A stretch of DNA of 64,000 bases from Candidatus Omnitrophota bacterium (GTDB lineage: Bacteria > Omnitrophota > Gorgyraeia > 1-14-0-20-64-10). Shown here in pieces: positions 3,763 through 43,752 of the stretch; the first letter of the stretch is position 1; every line of letters begins with the position of its first letter. Location: contig JACQCH010000017.1 of assembly GCA_016201735.1 (NCBI GenBank), positions 7,910 to 71,909 on the forward strand. The letters run 5' to 3'. The notes under the pieces were generated by a model. It was not told the origin of the DNA and searched no databases. It worked only from the letters and a program-made list of their open reading frames with translations. Made by a program: the position numbers and the translations under genes.

Positions 3763-4881
3763 TCAGCTCTTGAGGATCACCATCGAGTCCCGGTGGATCA
3801 CCTCTTGAGCTTTGCGGCCCAGCGCCGACCGGATGGCGTCGCTCTTGAACCCTTTGATCTTCTCCAATTCGGCGTGGGAGTAGCCGACGATCCCCCGCGC
3901 GAATTCCTGGTCCTGGTTGATCTGTGCCACGGAAACCAGATCCCCTCGGCGGAAGTTCCCCTCAACCGCGTGGACCCCCGAAGCCAGCAGGGAAAGCCGC
4001 CGAGAAGCCAACGCTTCCCTCGCCCCGGAATCAACCAGGATCCGCCCCTTGGGCCTTCCCGTCAGGCCGAGCCACCGCTGTTTCCCCTTTAATCCGGATC
4101 CCTTTCTCGGAATAAACCATGTTCCAGAGAACTCCTTTTTCAGGAAGGCCTTCGTCAAACAATTCTCCTGCCGGCCGTTCATCAAAATCATTGGGATGCC
4201 GCTGGCCATCACGATCTTGGCTGCCTCTAATTTCGTCCGCATGCCGCCCGTGGAAACTGCTTTGGTCGTCCCCCCGGCCGCCCTTTCCAAATCCGGCGTG
4301 ATCTCTGTGACGAGGGCCTGAAAACCATCGGGACCTTTGAGCTGGTCCACATCGCTTAAAAGAACCAGCAGGTCCGCGTCCACCAGCGCCGCCACCTGAG
4401 CGGAGAGGATGTCGTTGTCTCCGTAGCGAATCTCCTCAACCGACACCGTGTCGTTCTCATTGATGATCGGAACCACCTGCGCCTTCAACAAAGTCAACAG
4501 GGTCGCTTTGGCATTTAGGTACCGCCGGTGATTTTCAAGATCGTCCCGGGTCAGAAGAATCTGCGCCGCGTGGAGGCCCTCTTTCTCGAAATGGGTCGTG
4601 TACCACTGCATGAGCCGGCCCTGCCCCGTCGCCGCGGCGGCCTGGAGCTTGGCCAACTCCTTGGGACGCTTCTTTAAATCCAAGATCCCCATTCCCACCC
4701 CGATGGCGCCGGAGGTCACAACGATCACCTCCATCTTTTGGCGCCAGAGGGCGGCCACCTCGGAAGCGATCGCCTCAACCCGGTGGCGGACCACTCCGGC
4801 ACGGTCAGGATCGGTCAAGACCGACGTACCCACCTTGACCACCAGCCGCTTAGCGGAGGAGAGAAATTCTGTGGGGTTCAT
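3763..4881 (-). CDS. proB: glutamate 5-kinase (with C-terminal PUA domain)
   Basis: 372 aa; LVVKVGTSVLTD..., kinase core and PUA-like C-terminus; ATGA overlap with obgE stop. Confidence 0.9.
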   Translation of the reverse strand: MNPTEFLSSAKRLVVKVGTSVLTDPDRAGVVRHRVEAIASEVAALWRQKMEVIVVTSGAIGVGMGILDLKKRPKELAKLQAAAATGQGRLMQWYTTHFEKEGLHAAQILLTRDDLENHRRYLNAKATLLTLLKAQVVPIINENDTVSVEEIRYGDNDILSAQVAALVDADLLVLLSDVDQLKGPDGFQALVTEITPDLERAAGGTTKAVSTGGMRTKLEAAKIVMASGIPMILMNGRQENCLTKAFLKKEFSGTWFIPRKGSGLKGKQRWLGLTGRPKGRILVDSGAREALASRRLSLLASGVHAVEGNFRRGDLVSVAQINQDQEFARGIVGYSHAELEKIKGFKSDAIRSALGRKAQEVIHRDSMVILKS

Positions 4882-5996
4882 ATTCCAATGTCATCCTCGC
4901 TAAAGCGAGGATCAGATTCCCGCTTTCGCGGGAATGACGGATCTCGAGATTGCTTCGGCTCTTCGAGCCTCGCAATGACCTCCCCTATCTTCTTCAACAG
5001 TTTCGGGACTCCCTCGCCAGTCTTGGCGGAGATCGGAAGTACCGTTCCCTTAATCTTCTTCTTGAACCGGGCCAGGTTTTTGGCGGCGGCCGGCTCGTCC
5101 ATTTTGTTGGCCGCCAGGATTTGCCGCTTGGCGGCGACCGCCGGATCGTACAGCTTCAATTCCCGGTTCAACGTCTCGTAATCCTCCACCGGGTCCCGGC
5201 CGTCCGCCCCAGCCATATCGATCAAGTGGACCAGGAGCGTGGTCCGTTCAATGTGCCTTAAGAACTCCAGCCCAAGCCCCTTTCCCCGGTGGGCCCCCTC
5301 GATCAAGCCGGGGACATCCACGGCGACGACGGAGTTCTTGGAGGGAAGCGTCACCGCCCCCAGCACCGGATGGATCGTCGTGAAAGGAAACGGAGCGATC
5401 TTGGGCCGGGCCTGCGAAATCTGCGCGATCAAGGTGGACTTGCCGGCATTGGGAAGTCCCACGATCCCGACGTCCGCGAGGAGTTTCAGTTCCAGCCGCA
5501 GACGTCTGCGTTCACCGGCCGCCCCGTCCAATTTGCCCGGCTCTAAGAGACGGATATCCCGGGAAGGAGCCCAGGAAGAAGTGGACCGGGACCTTTCCTT
5601 GGAGGCGTTGCCGACCCCGCCGGCCCCGCCCCGGGCGATCAGCATTTCATCACCGGGTTTGAGCAGTTCCTGGATCAGCTCGCCGGTGTCGGCGTCCCAA
5701 AGGAGTGTTCCCAAGGGGACGTTGATCCGGCAGTCGGTCCCTTGAGCGCCGTGCTGTTTCTTGGAAGAGGCGTTGCCGCCGTGCCCGGCCCGGAAATGCC
5801 GTTTGGCTTGGAAATCGAGGAGAGTGGTTAGCTGCGGGTTGGCGCGAACCAGGACATGGCCGCCCCGGCCCCCGTCCCCGCCGTCAGGGATTGCATGCCG
5901 GGTCCAGCGATCCTGGTAAAACGAACGGCACCCCTTGCCGCCCCGGCCGGCTTCCGCGAGGATGGATGCTTGGTCGACGAAACGGGTCGTTCTCAC
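4878..5996 (-). CDS. obgE: GTPase Obg/CgtA
   Basis: 372 aa; Obg fold N-terminus ([21 protein letters not shown], glycine-rich), G domain [10 protein letters not shown]; conserved rplU-rpmA-obg context. Confidence 0.9.
4895..4990. repeat. cluster of three tandem REP-like hairpins (GTCATCCTCGCTAAAGCGAGGATC; ATTCCCGCTTTCGCGGGAATGAC; GATTGC...GCAATGAC) lying inside the 3' end of obgE coding sequence
   Basis: Seen directly; translated in-frame as obg C-terminal tail ...[25 protein letters not shown]; third hairpin resembles unit inside aroA insertion (32216..32250). Confidence 0.6.
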
Positions 5997-9842: not shown

Positions 9843-11516
9843 TCAACGCGGCTTCTGATGAGCCTGGCCTTTGTTGGACAGCTTTTCATGCAGGAACTCT
9901 CCATACTGCTGCTGAAGTTGATCCGTCTGCTCCGAAGAAAGAGTCCCTGGGTCGACGATCTTCGCGGTCAGGAAAATCAAGAGATCAATCTTCGCCAGAT
10001 CGGTTGTCGAACGGGAGAAGAGGGGCCCAACCAATGGGAGCTTCCCTAAGAAGGGCAGTCCCACCCGGGACTTGGACTTGACATCCTTCAAGAGCCCGCC
10101 GATCACCACCGTCTCCCCATGCTCCAGGACCACCTGGGTTTCCGCTTCCCGGACGTTCAAGATCGGATACTGGTTCGTGCCCACGACACTCCCCCGAGCG
10201 GAGATGACCGGATGGACGATCATGTCGATGTTGTGCTCGCCGCTGACCTGGGGAACCACGTACAGCTCAATGCCGATGTTTTGGTAATAATCCAGGCTTG
10301 TCGTCGTGGTGGTGGAGGAAGTGCCCGTCACCTGTGTGGAAAGAATCGGATACTTCTCTCCAATTAAGATCCTCGCCTCCTGGCCCGAGAGGGTCATCAC
10401 GTGAGGCGCCGAGAGGGTGTTGGTCCGCACATCCTCCTCCAAGGCCCTTAAGAGCAGTTCGAACTGCGTCCCGCGGAGCTGCCTTAGCACCAGCGACAGG
10501 CCCGTGTTGGCTGAAGTCAATCCGGAGGTCAGAGGAACGAAGCTGGCCGGGCTTAAAACTTGATTCAAGACAGATCCGCCGAATTTGGCCGTATCCGTTC
10601 CACCCACTCTTTTATCCAGAGATTGCAGGCCGAAGGGCCGGGAACTCGTGCTGGAAACGAATCCTTCGGACGAACTCGTGGTGGTGGAGCCGGGTCCTGT
10701 GCCCACCTCCAACCCAAGGTCCCTTAACAGATCGCGGCTGACCTCCATAACACGGGCCTCAATGAGGATCTGCTTCGGGAGAACGTCGATCATCGTTAGA
10801 ATCTTCTCCAGCCGGTCAATGGTGGTCGGGGTATCGGTGATCACTATCGCTTTGGAGCGGGCCTTCTCCCTCCCGGCCCGCTTCCGGTTCGCTTGTTCCT
10901 CCCCTCCTCCTCCCCCGGCCTTGGTCGTCCCAAAGGCCCACCCTTTCTGCCCCGTCATCTCCAACACCGAAATCTTCCCCTGGCCGGTCAGCTGCGGTTC
11001 CAGGAAGGTCTTGACGTCCCCGGCATCCAGAAATTTCAGCCGAATTACCTTGGTCGTCACCGGTTCAATCTCCACCAGCTGTTTCATGGCATCCCGCCTC
11101 GCCTTGAGATCTTCCAGGGTGGTGACGAGAATGACGTTGCCATCCTTCTCATAGCCGTACCCGTAGTTCTTGGCGATCACATCCAGGGCCTGCTCCCACG
11201 ACACCTCTTCCAGATGGATCGTCACCACCCCGGCGATCTCCTTGCCCGTGACGATGTTGACCTTGGCCTTCCGGGCCAAGGCCTGCAGGACCGTCTGAAT
11301 ATCCGCCTCCTTGAAATCGAGGGAAATCGATCCTCCGTCCGGAGGATTTGGAACCGGCGCCTGGGCGACCTGCACCGGTTTTTCTCCCGCTTCACCGGCC
11401 GCGCTCGGCCCCGGCTCTTCTTGAGAGAACAAGCCCGATCCCGTCGTTGTCAGAACCATTCCGATCGCCGTAAGCCAGATTGAAACCCGCTTCGGCAAGC
11501 CGTGGGTTCGTCTCAT
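9843..11516 (-). CDS. pilQ: type IV pilus secretin PilQ
   Basis: 557 aa; signal peptide, AMIN/N-domains, C-terminal secretin domain (GETVVIGGLLKD...RVGLPFLGKLPLVGPLF). Confidence 0.85.
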   Translation of the reverse strand: MRRTHGLPKRVSIWLTAIGMVLTTTGSGLFSQEEPGPSAAGEAGEKPVQVAQAPVPNPPDGGSISLDFKEADIQTVLQALARKAKVNIVTGKEIAGVVTIHLEEVSWEQALDVIAKNYGYGYEKDGNVILVTTLEDLKARRDAMKQLVEIEPVTTKVIRLKFLDAGDVKTFLEPQLTGQGKISVLEMTGQKGWAFGTTKAGGGGGEEQANRKRAGREKARSKAIVITDTPTTIDRLEKILTMIDVLPKQILIEARVMEVSRDLLRDLGLEVGTGPGSTTTSSSEGFVSSTSSRPFGLQSLDKRVGGTDTAKFGGSVLNQVLSPASFVPLTSGLTSANTGLSLVLRQLRGTQFELLLRALEEDVRTNTLSAPHVMTLSGQEARILIGEKYPILSTQVTGTSSTTTTTSLDYYQNIGIELYVVPQVSGEHNIDMIVHPVISARGSVVGTNQYPILNVREAETQVVLEHGETVVIGGLLKDVKSKSRVGLPFLGKLPLVGPLFSRSTTDLAKIDLLIFLTAKIVDPGTLSSEQTDQLQQQYGEFLHEKLSNKGQAHQKPR

Positions 11517-35797: not shown

Positions 35798-36232
35798 CTA
35801 TCTCCGTCGCAAAAGATTCCAGGCGATCAGTACCGCTCCGATCGTGATGCAGCTGTCGGCCACGTTAAAAACGGGCCAGATCCGGAAATCCAGGAAGTCG
35901 ATCACCCCTCCGACCCGGACCCGGTCGATCAGGTTCCCGACCGCCCCTCCGAAGATCAACCCCAGCGCAAGGTTGTTCCATCGGCTGCTTCCCTGCCCCC
36001 GGACGGCGGAAAAGAGCAGTCCCACGACCACCGCCGTCGTCGCCAGGGCGATCGGGAAACTGTAGCCGCTGAACAATCCGAAGGCGACCCCGGGATTGCG
36101 CAAATAGGTCAGATGAAAAACACCCGGAAGAATCGGAACCGAAGGAGAACCGGAAAGGGTTCGGACCACCAGGAACTTGGTGCCCTGATCCAGGAGGATG
36201 ATCCCGAGAGACAAAAGAAGGATTTGGGTCAA
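35798..36232 (-). CDS. lspA: lipoprotein signal peptidase II
   Basis: 144 aa; four TM, conserved NxGxAFG-like (NPGVAFGLF) and FNVAD motifs. Confidence 0.85.
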   Translation of the reverse strand: MTQILLLSLGIILLDQGTKFLVVRTLSGSPSVPILPGVFHLTYLRNPGVAFGLFSGYSFPIALATTAVVVGLLFSAVRGQGSSRWNNLALGLIFGGAVGNLIDRVRVGGVIDFLDFRIWPVFNVADSCITIGAVLIAWNLLRRR

Positions 36233-36246
36233 CCTTTGAAGCGTTC

Positions 36247-36666
36247 TTAGCCGCGATCTTCCGGCGGCAGCCCGGAGGAGGGAGCGACCCCGCGGCGCTT
36301 GGTCTCCTCCTTCGACTGGCAGGCGATGCAGAGACTGGCGTACGGGATCGCCGTCAGGCGCCTCCGGTTGATTGGCTTGCCGCAGGTCAAGCAGTCGCCG
36401 AACCGCTTCTCCTGCACTCGCTTCAACGCCTCATCAATTTCGTACAGGATGGACTGGGCGTTGGTGGCCAGACCGAGGGAGAATTCCCGGTCGTAGCTGT
36501 CGGTGGCGATGTCGGCCATGTGCAGGGTGTAGCCGGACAGATCCCCGGAGGCATCCCGCTGGGACTTGCTCAGGGTATCCTTCTCGATGTGCTTCATCGC
36601 CTGAAGGACCTCCTCTTTCTTCTTGAGGAGCAGTTTTTTGTATCGGTCCAGATCTTTCTTGGTCAC
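36247..36666 (-). CDS. DksA/TraR-family C4 zinc-finger transcription factor (GTG start)
   Basis: 139 aa; coiled-coil N-region, CLTCGKPI...CIACQ zinc finger; GTG start embedded in GGAGGGGCGGGGTGA motif. Confidence 0.7.
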   Translation of the reverse strand: MTKKDLDRYKKLLLKKKEEVLQAMKHIEKDTLSKSQRDASGDLSGYTLHMADIATDSYDREFSLGLATNAQSILYEIDEALKRVQEKRFGDCLTCGKPINRRRLTAIPYASLCIACQSKEETKRRGVAPSSGLPPEDRG

Positions 36667-36826
36667 CCCGCCCCTCCATGGATCGGGACGCCAAAACTGC
36701 GCTCAGGAGCACTGTGGGCGTCCCGAAAAGCTCCATGAGCTTTTATTCTCTGGGGCAACCCGGAAATTACCCTCATGCTCATCCTCCCTCCATGGCCCCA
36801 GAGAAATCCATGGAGGGGCGGGGTCA
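36663..36826 (-). promoter_or_regulatory. structured GC-rich inverted-repeat element between ileS stop and dksA start; outer arms TGACCCCGCCCCTCC / GGAGGGGCGGGGTGA pair and would sequester dksA SD + GTG
   Basis: On minus strand: ileS stop TGA is first 3 nt of 5' arm; inner stems UCUCUGGGGC/GCCCCAGAGA and GGGACGCC/GGCGUCCC; homologous element upstream of ADH at 42458..42691. Confidence 0.5.
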
Positions 36827-39694
36827 TCGTAAACCGAGAGTATACCACATGTTCACCGTTTCCACGCACCGATGGCACAGGGCCGGATGCTCCGAAGAAG
36901 CCCCTACCGAAGGCAGCCGCATCCAGCAGCGCTGGCACTTGGACCCGGCTGCCGGGCGGACATTCATCTGAAGTGCCGGGCCGGGCCCGGATCCCGGGAC
37001 AATCTCCAGTTTCGAAACGATGCAGGCCAGCTCCAACTCCGACCGGCGCTTCGTCAGAAAGTCCAACGATTCCTTATCCTGGACCAGGATCTCCAACTCC
37101 GCTTCCAGAGAATCTCCGATCTGGCCTCCCTCTCGCGCCTTCTCCAACGCCTTCATCGCCTGGTCTCTGAACTGAATCAGGCGGGCCCAGTCCGCTTCCA
37201 GCGATCGGTCCGGCGGCAGACCCGGAGAGATGGGCCAATCCTGCAGGTGCACGCTCCGGCTGCGGTTGGAGGAAACCGCACCAGGCGCCTCGGCGCTCCC
37301 GCCGCTGGGGAGCCCGAAGGCGGTCCAGGCCTCTTCCGCCGTCAGCGGAAGGATCGGGGCGATCAGGCGGATCATTGCGTCGGTCAGGATTGCCAGAACG
37401 GTTTGAATCTCCCGCCGCTGGGGATCCTTGGGGTAAAAAGTGTACAGCCGATCCTTGATCACATCGAGATAAAAGTTGGAGAGGATGCCCGTGCAGAATT
37501 CATGGATCTTCTTGACCGCCCGGTGAAACGCATATTGCTCGTAGGCATCGGTCACCTCCCGCACAAGGGCACCAAACTGCAGAAGTATCCAGCGGTTGAG
37601 CCCCTGCATCTTCTCCAGCGGGACCCGGACTTCCGAGGCCTGGAAATCGGACAGGTTGGCCAGCATGAACCGGAGGGTGTTCCGGATCTTCCGGTACACC
37701 TCGGCGGTCTGCGACAGGATCTCCGGTGAGATCCGAACATCTTCCCGATAGTCGGAGGCGGCCACCCAGAGCCGCAGGAGATCAGCCCCCAGCGAGGAGA
37801 CCACCTCCTGCGGAGCGGTGACGTTCCCCAGCGACTTCGACATCTTCCGCCCTTGGCCGTCCACGACGAACCCGTGGGTCAGCACCGCCCGGTAAGGGGC
37901 CTTCCCCTCCAGCGCCACCCCGGTGATCAGCGAAACCTGGAACCAGCCCCGGTGCTGGTCCGATCCTTCCAGGTACATGTCGGCTGGGACTGCGTGATCT
38001 TCGCGGCGCTTCAAGACGGCTTGATGACTGACCCCGGAATCAAACCAGACATCCAGGATGTCGGTTCCCGGTTTGAAATCGGATTTGCCGCATTTGCATT
38101 TCAATCCGGCGGGGAGCCACCGGCTGACCGGCTCGCTGAACCACCGGTCGCTCCCCTCCGGGTCCTTCTCGATCTCTTTCGCGAACCGGTCGATCACCCG
38201 GGAGTCCAGAATTCCTTCTCCGCAGCCAGAGCAGATCACCGCCGGGATCGGGATCCCCCAGAGCCGCTGGCGGGAGAGGCACCAGTCCGGCCGGGTCTTG
38301 ATCATGCCGGCCATCCGCTCCTTTCCCTCCGGCGGGATCCATTGAACCTGTTTCTCGACGGCGTCGAGCAGTTTCCGGCGGAGATCCTCATGCTCGACGT
38401 TCAAGAACCATTGGTCGGTCGCCCGGAAGATGATCGGGTTGTGACACCGCCAGCAGTGTGGATACTGATGTTCCTCTTCGCCGGCTTTCACGAGAGCTCC
38501 CCGTTGTTTGAGCAGTTCGATGACGGCGGGATTGGCTGTCTGAACCTGCTGGCCGTTAAATTGTGCGACTTCTTTGGGCAAGCCGACGAACTGTCCCCGT
38601 GAATCGACCGGCGCCAATACCTCCAGCCCGTATTTCTTTCCGATCGCGTAATCCTCAGCTCCGAACCCGGGCGCCGTGTGAACCAGCCCCGTCCCGTCCT
38701 CCGAGGAAACGTAATCAGCCAGAATGACTTTCCCTTCCCGCAATCCAAACGGATGCTGATAACGAAGTCCGTCAAGATCGCGACCGCGAAATCGATGAAA
38801 GATGGAGCTGGGATCTTCGGACAAACCGAGATCTTTTTGGGCCACTTCTGGCAAACGGGCCAGCGTCACCCAGATTTCATCCGGGTTAGTTCCTTTTCGC
38901 GCGACGTATTCATAATCCGGATGAATCGCCACGCCGACATTGCCCATCAATGTCCAGGGAGTGGTTGTCCAAATCACTAAATAGGCCTTCCGTGGCTGGA
39001 TTCCAAGAGGATTCATCCTAAGAGCGGCGTTCTTTTCCAATTCAAACTTCATGTAGATCGAGGGAGAGCGGTGCATCTCGTACTCCACCTCGGCCTCGGC
39101 CAGGGCGGTCTCGCAGGACCAGCACCAGTTGACCGGCTTCCGGGCCCGATACACGAAACCTTTCCCGACGAGCGTGCTCAAGACCTGCAGGGCCGCCGAC
39201 ACGTACCCCGGCTCCAGCGTCAGGTACGGATGCTCCCAATCCCCCTGAACCGCCAGCCGTTTGAACTGATCCCGCTGGATCCCGACGTATTTCATGGCGT
39301 AGGCCCGGGCCTTGCGGCGGAACTCCAGCGTGTCCACCTGATGCTTGGTAACCTTCAGCTCCTTCATCAGGGCGTACTCGATCGGCAGACCGTGGCAGTC
39401 CCAGCCGGGAATGTACGGGGCCTTCCTCCCCCGCATCCCTTTGTACCGGACGATGAAATCCTTGAGCACCTTGTTCAAGGCATGCCCGATGTGAATGTCC
39501 CCGTTGGCGTACGGCGGCCCGTCGTGGAGGACAAAGGCCGGCGCCCCCTTCCGGTGTTCCAGGAACTGGGAATAAAGTCCTTCCCGTTCCCATTGGTCCA
39601 GGATCTTCGGCTCGCTCTGAGGGAGATTTCCCTTCATCGGGAAAGAGGTCTTCGGCAGGTTCAGGGTCGATTTGTAATCGGTCACCGGATTCAC
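36824..39694 (-). CDS. ileS: isoleucyl-tRNA synthetase
   Basis: 956 aa; HIGH (PYANGDIHIGH), KMSKS, C-terminal zinc-binding Cys cluster. Confidence 0.95.
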   Translation of the reverse strand: MNPVTDYKSTLNLPKTSFPMKGNLPQSEPKILDQWEREGLYSQFLEHRKGAPAFVLHDGPPYANGDIHIGHALNKVLKDFIVRYKGMRGRKAPYIPGWDCHGLPIEYALMKELKVTKHQVDTLEFRRKARAYAMKYVGIQRDQFKRLAVQGDWEHPYLTLEPGYVSAALQVLSTLVGKGFVYRARKPVNWCWSCETALAEAEVEYEMHRSPSIYMKFELEKNAALRMNPLGIQPRKAYLVIWTTTPWTLMGNVGVAIHPDYEYVARKGTNPDEIWVTLARLPEVAQKDLGLSEDPSSIFHRFRGRDLDGLRYQHPFGLREGKVILADYVSSEDGTGLVHTAPGFGAEDYAIGKKYGLEVLAPVDSRGQFVGLPKEVAQFNGQQVQTANPAVIELLKQRGALVKAGEEEHQYPHCWRCHNPIIFRATDQWFLNVEHEDLRRKLLDAVEKQVQWIPPEGKERMAGMIKTRPDWCLSRQRLWGIPIPAVICSGCGEGILDSRVIDRFAKEIEKDPEGSDRWFSEPVSRWLPAGLKCKCGKSDFKPGTDILDVWFDSGVSHQAVLKRREDHAVPADMYLEGSDQHRGWFQVSLITGVALEGKAPYRAVLTHGFVVDGQGRKMSKSLGNVTAPQEVVSSLGADLLRLWVAASDYREDVRISPEILSQTAEVYRKIRNTLRFMLANLSDFQASEVRVPLEKMQGLNRWILLQFGALVREVTDAYEQYAFHRAVKKIHEFCTGILSNFYLDVIKDRLYTFYPKDPQRREIQTVLAILTDAMIRLIAPILPLTAEEAWTAFGLPSGGSAEAPGAVSSNRSRSVHLQDWPISPGLPPDRSLEADWARLIQFRDQAMKALEKAREGGQIGDSLEAELEILVQDKESLDFLTKRRSELELACIVSKLEIVPGSGPGPALQMNVRPAAGSKCQRCWMRLPSVGASSEHPALCHRCVETVNMWYTLGLR

Positions 39695-40816: not shown

Positions 40817-41631
40817 CTCCCTAGCTTCTTACTTCTTTGAGCGGCTGCCTGAATTCCGGCCCGAATTATTTTCCCCAGCCCGGCCCGAGCATACACCTTA
40901 AACGCCGCTTCCGTGGTTCCCCCCTTGGAGGTCACCCGGGCCCGCAGAAGTTTCGGCTCCTCGCCGGATTTCGCCAGCTTGGCGGCTCCTTCGGCGGTGG
41001 CCAGAACTAACTGCCGCGCCGCCTGTTTCGACAGCCCCAAGTGGACTCCCGCCTCAATCATCTGCTCCATCAGAAAAAAGAAATAGGCCGGCCCGGAGCC
41101 GCTGACCGCCGTGACCCCGTTCATCCAGCTTTCCGGAACCTCCAGCACCTCCCCCACTCCTTGAAAGATCCGTTTCACTATCTTGACCATCGAGGGGATC
41201 GCCGCCCGGCCGGGGGCGATCGCCGTCACACCGGCCCCCACCAACGCCGGGGTGTTCGGCATCACCCGGACCACCGGGACGGCCTTGCCGGTTGAACCAG
41301 CGCGGCCGATCCGTTTCTCGATCCAACGGGTTGAAATCCCTGCCGCAATCGAAATTAGAAGCGGCCGTTTGCTAAGATGCAGACGGATCTCCTCGAGAAC
41401 CCCCTACATCTGCTGGGGCTTGACCGCCAAGAGGATGAGTTGTGATTTCTCGGCCAGATCGGAATTGGACCGGGCTCGCCGAATTCCAAAGACCCGGCTC
41501 AATTTCTTAAGCTTCTCCGAATCCGAATCCCAGACAAGGATCCGGCCCGGCGCAACGAACCGGCTCGCCAGCATCCCCCGGATCAGGGCGGACCCCATGT
41601 TCCCGCATCCGATCACCCCGATCGTTTTCAT
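40813..41631 (-). pseudogene. proC: pyrroline-5-carboxylate reductase ProC interrupted by a single in-frame TAG (41404..41406)
   Basis: N-fragment ORF 41404..41631 (MKTIGVIGCGNMGSAL...AVKPQQM*) and C-fragment 40813..41274 are in the same frame; the 129 nt between read through as GVLEEIRLHLSKRPLLISIAAGISTRWIEKRIGRAGSTGKAVP without further stops. Confidence 0.7.
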
Positions 41632-42320
41632 TGAAAGATCGCCGTCCCGATCCGCACCATCGTCGCTCCTTCCTCCACCGCCACCTCCAAGTCCTGGCTC
41701 ATCCCCATGGACAAATCCAGCGAGGGGTCGATCCCATCCCGAAGCCGGCGCAATTGCCGGAAAACCGGTCGGGCCGATTCCGGATCGTCGGCAAATGGGG
41801 CCATCGTCATGAAGCCCGACAATTTCAGATTCTTCGATTTCAAGATCGCCGCCGCCAGCACCCTTGCTTCGTCCGGCTTACAGCCATGCTTGGCCGCCTC
41901 TCCCGACACATTCACCTGAACCAGCAGCTCCAACCCCCGCTCGGGCTGAGCCGGTCGAAGCCCGACGGCCCGACCCAGCGCCTCGACCAGCTCCAGCGAG
42001 TCGACCGAGTGAACCACGTCGAACAGCTCCACCGCGGCCCTCACCTTGTTCCGCTGAAGGTGCCCGATCAGGTGCCAGCGGACTTCGCGCCCGATCGCCG
42101 GCTGTTTCTGCTGGGCTTCCTGGACCCGGTTCTCGCCGATCTCCCGCACCCCGCAGGCAATCGCCTCCCGGATCCTCTCGACCGGAACTCCTTTGGTCAC
42201 ACCGATGAGACGCACGCCGGCAGGGTCTCGGCCTTTAGACCGGGCCGCTGCCGCAATCCGTTGCCGGATCTGCTCCAGGTTCGCGTCGATCACCCCGCCC
42301 CTCCGGAGTTCCGCTTCCAT
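41628..42320 (-). CDS. yggS: PLP homeostasis protein YggS (alanine racemase N-terminal fold)
   Basis: 230 aa; LIGVTKGVP...IGHLQRNK motifs; ATGA overlap with proC start. Confidence 0.85.
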   Translation of the reverse strand: MEAELRRGGVIDANLEQIRQRIAAAARSKGRDPAGVRLIGVTKGVPVERIREAIACGVREIGENRVQEAQQKQPAIGREVRWHLIGHLQRNKVRAAVELFDVVHSVDSLELVEALGRAVGLRPAQPERGLELLVQVNVSGEAAKHGCKPDEARVLAAAILKSKNLKLSGFMTMAPFADDPESARPVFRQLRRLRDGIDPSLDLSMGMSQDLEVAVEEGATMVRIGTAIFQ

Positions 42321-42457
42321 CCCTGCAGGGATGGAAGCGCTGTGCCGAAGGCACAGATGCCCTCGGCTGTCTCTCGCTTTAAACGATCCCTCTTTTCATG
42401 AACCTGTGCATCTCCTCAGACCCTGAAGAATCCACCCCCCTGCCGAGGGCATACTCC

Positions 42458-42691
42458 GGAGGGGCGGGGTCATGAAATTGCTATTACAGCACCCCGCTTC
42501 CACCTTGTCAACCGACGGAACGGCGTGATAAATTAGACGGCGTGACCCCGCCCCTCCTTTGGGCTCTCTGGCACAGTTGGAGGGTGGTCAACCGGGAGGG
42601 GTCAGCGAGTCACCTGTGCCAGAGAGAGAAATCTTACGAAAGATTTCTGGGACGCCTGAAAGGCGTCCCTACCAAAGGAGGGGCGGGGTGA
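42458..42691 (+). promoter_or_regulatory. three-arm GC-rich inverted-repeat leader (GGAGGGGCGGGGTCA / TGACCCCGCCCCTCC / GGAGGGGCGGGGTGA) with 18-codon uORF (42472..42528), preceding ADH GTG start
   Basis: Arm 1 42458..42472 carries SD+ATG of uORF MKLLLQHPASTLSTDGTA; arm 2 42543..42557 is perfectly complementary to arm 1 and 14/15 to arm 3 (42677..42691) which contains SD and GTG of the ADH; inner stems CTCTCTGGCACAG/CTGTGCCAGAGAG and GGGACGCC/GGCGTCCC. Confidence 0.5.
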
Positions 42692-43752
42692 AGGCAGCCA
42701 TCTATCGGGGGCCGAATGATGTCCGGGTGGAAGAGGTGCCGGTGCCGCCGGTGGGACCCGGCGAGGTACTGCTTCAGGTACAGGCTTGCGGCGTCTGTGG
42801 GACGGATCTAAAGAAGATCGCGCAGGGGGATCTGCCGGCTCCCCGCATCTTCGGCCACGAGGTGGCCGGCCGGGTGGTGGCCGTCGGATCGGGCGTCGGG
42901 CAATGGCGTAGCGATGACCGGGTCGTCTTCTTCCACCACATCCCCTGCCGATCCTGCGATCTCTGCCGCGTTCAGGCCTATGCCCAGTGCCCGCAGTACC
43001 TTCGGGTGGGGACCACTGCCGGCTTTGAGCCGGCCGGCGGCGGATTCGCCGAGTACGTCAAGGTGATGGATTGGATCGCGCGTGACGGTCTAGTCAAGAT
43101 CCCCAACGGGGTCACGGACGAAGAGGCGATTTTCGTGGAACCGGTCAACACCTGCTTGAAAGGAATTCAAAAGGCTGAGATCATTCCCGGTCGGCCGGTG
43201 CTGATCCTCGGCTCCGGACCGGTGGGGCTGATCTTGCTTCAGCTGGCCCGGTTGGCCGGCGGGGTGGTCTACGTCGCCGATCCCATTCCGGAACGCCTGG
43301 AGGCGGCCCGCCGGCTGGGGGCGGCCGATACGCACGACATCTCGGGACATTCCCTCCTGGATTGGGTCCGCCGGCGAATTGATCCGCGCGGGGCAGAGGT
43401 CGCCCTCGTCGCCGCGGCATCGGTGCAGGCCATTTCCTCCGCGCTGGAGGCGGTGCGGCCAGCCGGTCGAGTGGTCCTCTTCGCGCAAACTCGACTCGGC
43501 GAGACGGCCGCGCTGGACGTCGGGCAGATCGGCAAACTGGAGAAGGAACTGGTGGGGAGTTACAGCGCATCGATTGATCTGCAGGAGGAGGCGGCCCGGC
43601 TGGTCTTTACTCGAGAGATTCAAGTCGCTCCGCTCATCTCTCATCGGTTCGGGCTGAATCAGATCCGCGAGGCCCTCGGTGTAGCGATGCGGCCCTCCGC
43701 CCAATCTCTGAAGGTCATCGTCCAGCCAGGGTTGAACGGATCCACGCCATGA
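42688..43752 (+). CDS. zinc-dependent alcohol dehydrogenase (MDR superfamily, sorbitol/threonine DH-like), GTG start
   Basis: VKAAIYRGPNDVRVEEVPVPPVGPGEVLLQV..., GHE motif, structural zinc cysteines, GxGxxG; upstream 43 codons of ORF 42559..43752 are leader, not coding. Confidence 0.8.
   Translation: MKAAIYRGPNDVRVEEVPVPPVGPGEVLLQVQACGVCGTDLKKIAQGDLPAPRIFGHEVAGRVVAVGSGVGQWRSDDRVVFFHHIPCRSCDLCRVQAYAQCPQYLRVGTTAGFEPAGGGFAEYVKVMDWIARDGLVKIPNGVTDEEAIFVEPVNTCLKGIQKAEIIPGRPVLILGSGPVGLILLQLARLAGGVVYVADPIPERLEAARRLGAADTHDISGHSLLDWVRRRIDPRGAEVALVAAASVQAISSALEAVRPAGRVVLFAQTRLGETAALDVGQIGKLEKELVGSYSASIDLQEEAARLVFTREIQVAPLISHRFGLNQIREALGVAMRPSAQSLKVIVQPGLNGSTP

Follow-up and report, generated by a model that had tools for sequence, protein, structure and literature searches.

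A small inverted-repeat element inserted at translation starts in Omnitrophota and its probable relay of coupling from ileS to a dksA-like gene

The sequence analyzed here is a stretch of 64,000 nt (the window) of contig JACQCH010000017.1 from a Candidatus Omnitrophota bacterium. It has a structured sequence, E1, located between ileS, the gene for isoleucyl-tRNA synthetase, and a gene of the DksA/TraR family. E1 is likely to be a small non-autonomous mobile element similar to miniature inverted-repeat transposable elements (MITEs), whose insertion relays the translational coupling from ileS to the dksA-like gene. Empty sites in related genomes show that the two genes were already coupled by an ATGA overlap before the insertion, and insertion into this overlap thus preserves the coupling. 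The old ATG opens an open reading frame (ORF) of 54 codons through the element; it is thus probably the translation of this ORF, and not melting of the outer stem alone, that carries the coupling across E1. A preliminary description of this DNA proposed that E1 is a coupling device. Coupling to ileS is indeed the most plausible mode of expression of the dksA-like gene, but it was not newly imposed by the element, as the relatives already have the ATGA arrangement.

Structure and location of the element

E1 is bounded by a direct repeat of TGA, which lies outside a perfect 12-bp inverted repeat. The ileS stop codon (36826–36824, minus strand) is the left copy of the duplicated TGA. The 5' arm together with this TGA is TGACCCCGCCCCTCC (36826–36812, minus strand), and the 3' arm with the GTG start is GGAGGGGCGGGGTGA (36677–36663, minus strand). 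A Shine-Dalgarno (SD) sequence, GGAGG, is present 6 nt before the new GTG. The TGA that ends the element ORF (36665–36663) overlaps this GTG in the sequence GTGA, i.e., a -4 overlap. The suggestion that the repeat donates start sites was essentially correct, in that the 3' arm supplies both SD and GTG. The features of the E1 locus and of the two other copies in the window, E2 and E3, are as follows.

36824..39694, minus strand: ileS ORF, isoleucyl-tRNA synthetase, 956 aa (Pfam tRNA-synt_1, Anticodon_1, zf-FPG_IleRS)
36825..36827, minus strand: old ATG start of the dksA-like gene, which now opens the element ORF; ATGA overlap with the ileS stop (empty sites L058, L125)
36663..36826, minus strand: element E1 from TGA to TGA, with 12-bp inverted repeat, 134-nt interior and duplicated TGA
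36812..36823, minus strand: E1 5' arm CCCCGCCCCTCC, anti-SD-like, directly after the ileS TGA
36746..36805, minus strand: inner helix P2, a variable region closed by a 13-bp stem (from the fold)
36726..36744, minus strand: inner hairpin P3, AAAAGCTC/GAGCTTTT (from the fold)
36684..36725, minus strand: inner hairpin P4, CGGGACGCC/GGCGTCCCG with a distal 7-bp stem, common to E3 (from fold and alignment)
36666..36677, minus strand: E1 3' arm GGAGGGGCGGGG, with the SD GGAGG at 36677–36673 and the first G of the new GTG
36663..36827, minus strand: E1 element ORF, ATG, 53 further codons and TGA (MTPPL...GGAG*), within the open frame 36663..36938
36247..36666, minus strand: DksA/TraR-family gene, 139 aa (zf-dksA/traR); its GTG (36666–36664) is formed by the element end and the right TGA
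42290..42472, minus strand: element E2 at the start of yggS (41628–42293, minus strand); old ATG 42473–42471; empty site L130
42543..42691, plus strand: element E3 at the start of a zinc alcohol dehydrogenase (ADH) gene (42688–43752, plus strand); old GTG 42542–42544; empty site L128
42505..42534, plus strand: promoter-like TTGTCA-18-TAAATT, located 7 nt before the old start of the ADH gene; orthologous to TTGACG...TGATAAGT in L128

The RNA fold of E1 has a free energy of -102 kcal/mol (z = -8.3). The outer stem, P1, has 19 bp, and both the SD and the GTG are base-paired within it. Its 5' strand consists of the A of the TGA, the 5' arm and an ATGGAT extension (36824–36806). An outer stem of 14–15 bp around two inner stems had been described earlier; the fold gives the longer stem and three inner helices. 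The coordinates of the arms at the ileS stop and the dksA-like start do agree with that description, and 100 shuffles of the window gave 0 matches to the arm-pair pattern, where the real sequence has three elements, each matched on both strands. The 12-mer arm has six exact occurrences in the window and these form three inverted pairs. E2 had been missed; the two loci reported before, E1 and the ADH leader, do belong to one family, but they are not its only members here. Folds of the three window copies are between -100 and -115 kcal/mol with z-scores of -8.3, -10.0 and -10.2, and each has an outer stem of 18–19 bp around three helices. Alignment of E1 with E3 (42543–42691) shows 78% column identity, and the hairpin GGGACGCC/GGCGTCCC is present in both, as had been noted. 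The ORF of E3 has 49 codons and terminates on the TGA that overlaps the new GTG. E2 has 177 nt from arm to arm (3n) and its ORF halts internally at codon 25. No promoter-like or terminator-like site was found for E1 within 36200–37200, and the proposed dependence on ileS is thus not contradicted by a promoter of the dksA-like gene inside the element. At E3 the promoter-like sequence 7 nt before the old ADH start would place the element in a near-leaderless transcript, and the old starts at E3 and E2 are 6–9 nt past a -10-like box.

Insertion sites and the element family

The DksA-like protein of the window has homologs of 73–94% identity that are named Candidatus Omnitrophica; several relatives have empty sites. 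The window sequence minus the element and one TGA gives ggtttacgATGACCAAGAAAGAT as the pre-insertion sequence of E1. The corresponding empty site is ggtttgcgATGACCAAGAAGGAT in L058 (junction gcgATGACCAAG), where ileS and dksA overlap by 4 nt, and tttgccATGACCAAGAAAGAG in L125 (junction gccATGACCAAG), whose DksA is 94% identical. The gene coordinates of a third contig (P0003, 90% identical) also give a 4-nt overlap of ileS and dksA. At the empty E3 site in L128 the promoter-like TTGACG...TGATAAGT is kept and is followed by gacgatATGAAAGCAGCG. The empty E2 site is found at the yggS start in L130 and reads gtTATAATcgtctgcttATGATTGCG. A single TGA is present at the matching position in all four relatives (L058, L125, L128 and L130), and the TGA at both ends of the element is thus a target-site duplication. 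A variant with a 4-bp duplication (TGAA) also exists.

Comparison by BLAST shows that related interiors are found either way round with respect to the arms and to the downstream gene. The pairs with opposite orientation are L045 and its ten relatives, L013 and E2/L035/L044, L014 and L034, and L016 and L030. One orientation is preferred by about 4:1. The occurrence of both is a property of mobile DNA with symmetric ends and not of a leader that evolved in place.

The family was collected by scans with the arm pair alone, TGA not required, of one representative genome per species and of a metagenome collection. Matches with TGA...TGA flanks as in the window copies were taken as members, and duplicates were removed. 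This gave 39 unique copies, all from Omnitrophota metagenome-assembled genomes (MAGs), MAGs labelled 'Planctomycetia' or metagenome contigs. At least one 'Planctomycetia'-labelled MAG (CAZRTR) has the ileS-dksA gene order of the window; this MAG has at least 9 copies, and BLAST recovered a subfamily of 11 members. The copies are 125–184 bp from arm to arm. The perfect 12-bp terminal inverted repeat is present in 39 of 39 and is extended by 5–7 co-varying pairs, with compensatory changes at all five pairs of the P1 extension. Every fold in the family has an outer stem and three hairpins (z = -8 to -10). The interiors of different subfamilies cannot be aligned; each keeps its palindromes, in a sequence of its own. 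The ends encoded by the arms are the only part found in all copies. The viral contigs had 0 matches to the element, and a viral origin is rejected. Rfam gave 0 matches in the window at the gathering threshold, and at E <= 1 there were likewise 0 for the three copies; Pfam has no family for four of the element peptides.

Copies of the family are found at translation starts. A long ORF is in frame with the GTG of the arm in 38 of 39 copies; occurrences away from starts would have spoken against the preliminary interpretation. Every copy has the GUGA overlap with GGAGG 6 nt upstream. The base that precedes the left TGA is A in 23 copies, G in 11, T in 4 and C in 1, so that the left flank corresponds to a start codon with A as the next base. 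This TGA doubles as the stop of an upstream ORF of at least 90 codons in 27 of the 39, which represent former NTGA stop/start overlaps like that of E1; the other 12 are without an upstream gene. Pfam analysis of ten downstream ORFs gave one without a match and nine with unrelated functions (dnaG, cdsA, ribF, ribD, a MiaB/RimO-type enzyme, a G3P-dehydrogenase-like protein, an epimerase, a heptosyltransferase and an amylase-like protein). In most of these proteins the Pfam domain starts at residues 2–16, which indicates that the GTG is the true N-terminus.

This distribution was compared with a background of 1233 TGA/TCA sites in 44.5 kb of related DNA that had not been selected for the element. 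There are 20 sites at NTGA gene starts, 18 at TGA stops without an overlapping start, 43 in intergenic DNA and 1152 inside coding sequence. Even if every insertion into coding sequence were lethal, starts would represent only about 25% of the tolerated sites. A relaxed search with two mismatches per arm yielded one extra copy in 465 kb, and this sole copy with degenerate arms is also at an ATGA start; decay of neutral copies is thus not the explanation. The target profile is just (G/C)(G/C)(A/G)TGA, the same as in ordinary NTGA starts. Mimicry of the end of the element was tried as a basis of targeting and rejected, as the flanks are no closer to GGAGGGGCGGGG than control starts are (p = 0.44–0.62). 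Genes in this lineage have SD-like motifs in about 40% of cases and -4 overlaps at 8 of 65 junctions. It is conceivable, and we suggest it only tentatively, that the element is actively targeted to translation starts by a mechanism independent of any DNA motif. A step tied to transcription or translation of the target, or a recombinase that senses start/stop overlaps, are equally speculative candidates. If targeting were active, the element would be a portable ribosome-binding site and coupler that rewires initiation for several percent of the genes in the lineage, and some near-leaderless genes would have become SD-led.

An arm-agnostic scan revealed a short sister family, TGA-CCCCACCAC...GTGGTGGGG-TGA. 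Its TGA flanks follow A or G, and all but one of the four copies are 3n+2 in length. The copies have interiors of 60–98 nt, and their arms are CCCCACCAC.../...GTGGTGGGG or CCCCACCCCCTCC. The copy in L129 is a shorter element at the yggS site of E2, with the co-varied arms CCCCACCCCCTCC / GGAGGGGGTGGGG.

L032, 2792–2895: sister-family copy
L036, 6123–6208: sister-family copy
L077, 4513–4578: sister-family copy
L129, 289–377: sister-family copy

A spread of the element across phyla was considered and rejected, as about half of the pattern matches are unrelated longer palindromes without TGA flanks or a downstream ORF. These are from Actinomycetota, Chloroflexi, Bacteroidota, Armatimonadota and others. 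One example consists of 140-nt units GGGAACCTCTCC-CCCCGCCCCTCC-CCTrGrAAGG... in a Chloroflexi MAG, and another of units CCCAC-CCCCGCCCCTCC-CCCATCCAGG in Prevotella-labelled contigs and Capsulimonadaceae; neither has TGA flanks. Loci with such palindromes that hold the 12-mers are:

L002, L017, L023, L028, L048 (Chloroflexi MAG CALBSQ)
L065, L069, L075, L084, L094, L117 (metagenome)
L006, L047, L076, L108, L110, L119; L012, L038, L049, L050

Neither the window nor 465 kb of related loci has extra arms at a spacing like that of insertion sequences. L018 and L020 have solo arms, and inspection of these for an autonomous partner gave no transposase-sized unit. One solo arm, a right arm, is found at a GTGA junction that looks natural, and the rest are within coding sequence. 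The former, GGAGGGGCGGGGTGA at L018 6854–6868 (minus strand), is without a left arm; an ORF of 285 aa ends in ...EEGGAG* at the solo arm and an ORF of 359 aa begins at the overlapping GTG. This solo right arm may be what is left of an element after fusion with the upstream gene.

Reading frame, coupling and alternative explanations

The length from arm to arm is 3n+2 in 33 of the 39 copies, and the first 27 copies have 14 distinct lengths, all 3n+2. With this length the frame of the old start meets the right-hand TGA, which overlaps the new GTG. The old-start frame is stop-free in 33 of 39 copies, as compared with 13 and 9 for the other two frames. Among the copies of 3n+2 length 32 of 33 have the frame open, where 11.6 are expected from dinucleotide-preserving shuffles of the interiors, and the ORF attains the UGA overlapping the GUG in 32 of 39. 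When the element is flipped the corresponding frame is open in 26 copies vs 13 for each other frame. Variants with the TGAA duplication are 3n+1 in three of five unique copies, so that the ORF stop is again the terminal TGA. Copies with a 4-bp duplication (TTGA or TGAA) are found at L040 6545–6678 and L074 841–1004, and in L074 the element frame continues in frame into the gene, with a predicted N-terminal extension of 56 residues. The length class thus tracks the reading frame, and this is the strongest indication that ribosomes read through the element. The putative element peptides begin with M/V/L-TPPL and end with GGAG, both of which are arm-encoded, and otherwise differ, with common stretches such as RRRLCLRHSGPALAE within subfamilies.

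These properties are consistent with the following sequence of events. After insertion into the ATGA overlap, the left TGA still stops ileS, the terminal G of the element and the right TGA remake the start as GTG-A, and the 3' repeat supplies the GGAGG. The 3n+2 length and the stop-free frame let the ORF of the old ATG reach the UGA that overlaps the new GUG. The insertion, the TGA duplication, the donated start and SD, the length class, the open frame and the fold are all shown by the analysis, and the steps of translation that follow are inferred. Ribosomes that complete ileS would reinitiate at the overlapping AUG, and translation across the element would unwind the fold of about -100 kcal/mol that buries the SD and GUG. 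Termination at the UGA may then be followed by reinitiation at the GUG of the dksA-like gene. The outcome would be a relayed form of the ancestral coupling, similar to a natural bicistronic-design cassette. Where the element precedes a first gene, as in E3 and E2, a near-leaderless start would have to load ribosomes before the 3' arm has been transcribed.

Several observations weigh against this interpretation. The old AUG is located at the very base of a GC-rich stem of 19 bp, and initiation de novo should be difficult there unless it is coupled or co-transcriptional. The genes behind E2, L010 and a few other copies are intact, although these copies depart from the rule for length or open frame. 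Translation through the element is thus not strictly required, and in some cases it must be enough that ribosomes initiate directly at the SD-GUG once P1 has breathed or melted. The window and 465 kb of related DNA gave no transposase and no longer element that ends in the termini of the family, and a comparison of target flanks with control starts showed no DNA motif that accounts for the choice of start codons. All element loci are from MAGs or metagenome contigs, and L126 was rejected as an independent occupied E1 site, as it is probably chimeric across the repeat.

The preliminary description had a ribosome at the ileS stop melt the outer stem. A simpler mechanism of this kind, where the pausing ribosome melts the 5' arm, a free 30S subunit initiates at the exposed SD-GUG and the element ORF is untranslated, is a viable minor route but is unlikely to be the general explanation. 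P1 does start right after the ileS stop and pairs both SD and GTG, the left TGA ends an upstream ORF in 27 of 39 copies, and copies with a broken ORF (E2 and L010) still precede intact genes. This mechanism leaves unexplained, however, the 3n+2 length of 33 of 39 copies, the 32 of 33 open frames and the shift of length class with the 4-bp duplication, and the 12 copies without an upstream gene have no terminating ribosome to provide. Translation of the element ORF probably relays the coupling. That the open frame is instead maintained for its product, a family of small proteins of about 45–60 aa (M-TPPL...GGAG) that is spread by the repeat and selected as a peptide and not for coupling, has very little probability. 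The frame is open in 33 copies, and in 26 even in the flipped sense, and members of a subfamily have peptide stretches in common, but only the arm-encoded ends are universal. The interiors differ wholly by subfamily and flip their orientation, conservation tracks base pairing and not codons, and the peptides are without a Pfam match.

The structure itself could be taken to represent a dedicated cis-regulatory RNA (a riboswitch, an RNA thermometer or a protein-binding leader) that toggles access to the SD and defines a regulon, and the preliminary description did propose a family of cis-regulatory elements. Pairing of the SD with the anti-SD is very stable, the conserved structure is accompanied by covariation, the orientation is biased about 4:1 and about 1 gene in 20 in the window bears a copy. 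We nevertheless regard a regulator as quite improbable. The interior sequence is invertible and is not conserved across subfamilies, the downstream genes are unrelated housekeeping genes with no common theme, the same genes in the closest relatives are without the element, there is no Rfam family even at E <= 1, and a fold of about -100 kcal/mol is far too stable for a reversible switch. At the other extreme, the element could be a neutral palindromic repeat, e.g., an element for RNase III cleavage or mRNA stability such as REP, ERIC or Correia, with the start position and open frame as by-products. Long perfect stems are good RNase III substrates, and other bacterial MITEs act as RNase III or mRNA-stability elements. 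The position of 38 of 39 copies at starts vs about 25% expected among tolerated sites, frame statistics that are far from chance, and the absence of decayed copies at neutral sites in 465 kb all but contradict neutrality, which we consider highly doubtful. We regard an insertion that relays the existing coupling as the best explanation.

Relation to known repeats and further observations

PMC12548453 summarises Supply et al. 1997 and describes mycobacterial interspersed repetitive units (MIRUs) as repeats with apparent mobility whose insertion sites are start codons. Their internal ORF is coupled to the host gene at -4 nt, which is thought to minimise the impact on expression (PMC12548453). 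As far as that summary extends, the present element resembles MIRUs in two respects, the insertion at start codons and an ORF within the repeat that terminates on the host start with a -4 overlap. The element does not consist of direct tandem units. MIRUs are direct, often tandem units of 46–101 bp in Mycobacterium (variable-number tandem repeats) and are not known to have terminal inverted repeats or a multi-hairpin fold. Compared with this general description, and not at the level of sequence, the present element is single at each site and has 12-bp inverted repeats and a duplicated TGA. It differs also in its four-way-junction fold, its own GGAGG SD, a start remade as GTG, insertion in both orientations and an Omnitrophota host.

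Correia/NEMIS, ERIC/IRU, RUP and the Rickettsia palindromic elements (RPEs) are small, dispersed and transposase-free, with terminal inverted repeats and target duplication. Bacterial MITEs and palindromic repeats form long hairpins in transcripts and vary in presence or absence between strains, and RPEs survive inside expressed sequence by respecting the reading frame. The present element similarly has terminal inverted repeats, a duplication verified by empty sites and many dispersed copies, and of the properties of MITEs it has all except a known autonomous partner. To our knowledge, none of these repeats sits specifically on start codons. We also know of none that regenerates the flanking stop and start, or that follows a 3n+2 rule for a -4 coupled ORF. 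The element is a structural variant of the MIRU/MITE kind in an uncultured phylum and not a dedicated regulator. Searches of the literature by sequence and by concept, with a coverage that was without most subscription journals, gave no description of it.

A further parallel is translational coupling by termination-reinitiation at -4 overlaps, and likewise the synthetic 'bicistronic design' (PMC12548453 and references in it). In these arrangements a short leader ORF holds the SD of the gene behind it, and the stop codon of the leader overlaps the start of that gene (GUGA). The translating ribosome clears structure around the downstream start (PMC12548453). The present element has the same GUGA overlap and an SD inside the upstream ORF. 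Unlike a permanent feature of an operon or a synthetic part, it is a natural, mobile and highly structured repeat, in which reinitiation is suggested by the arrangement of the sequence.

The element represents a convergence with the MIRU strategy, where insertion at a start codon is kept harmless by coupling, in a structurally different element with inverted repeats. It is a second and cleaner system for the study of this strategy, so far attributed to mycobacterial MIRUs, and its design rules are legible: the duplicated TGA, the terminal G that remakes GTG, the built-in GGAGG, the 3n+2 length and a stop-free frame in either orientation. It may also be of use as an expression part, i.e., a natural bicistronic cassette. 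For annotation, gene callers will put starts in the wrong place or predict spurious small ORFs for about 1 gene in 20 of these genomes. Short-read assemblies break or turn chimeric at the repeat (L126 and L127). In L126, a short-read contig (positions 1–452 vs 503–1176), the DksA protein is identical and the P2 loop is longer, and the C-terminus of a Clp-type ATPase has its TAG stop directly against the left arm. The contig is probably a chimeric join of two E1-like copies, which implies another copy in the same organism with TAG in place of TGA as left flank.

Some additional observations concern the yggS region and gene starts in the lineage. At the 5' end of yggS, the near-identical genomes of L056 (about 4436–5242) and L057 (about 4272–4859) have a difference of about 153 nt in a 51–55-nt tandem repeat, which has no relation to the element. 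Opposite to yggS in the window (42472–42528, plus strand), the arm GGAGGGGCGGGG is followed by TCATGA, whose ATG opens an ORF of 18 codons, read by eye only, in the divergent spacer between yggS and the ADH gene. A TATAAT-like box is present 6–12 nt before the start codon in several genes of the lineage (yggS, ADH, and dksA in some relatives), at the following positions. The boxes suggest that leaderless or very short-leader mRNAs are frequent in this lineage.

L054, about 500–523: TATAAT-like box
L056, about 4415–4435: TATAAT-like box
L058, about 4520–4540: TATAAT-like box
L059, about 4430–4452 and about 9985–10000: TATAAT-like boxes
Window, 42505–42534, plus strand: TATAAT-like box

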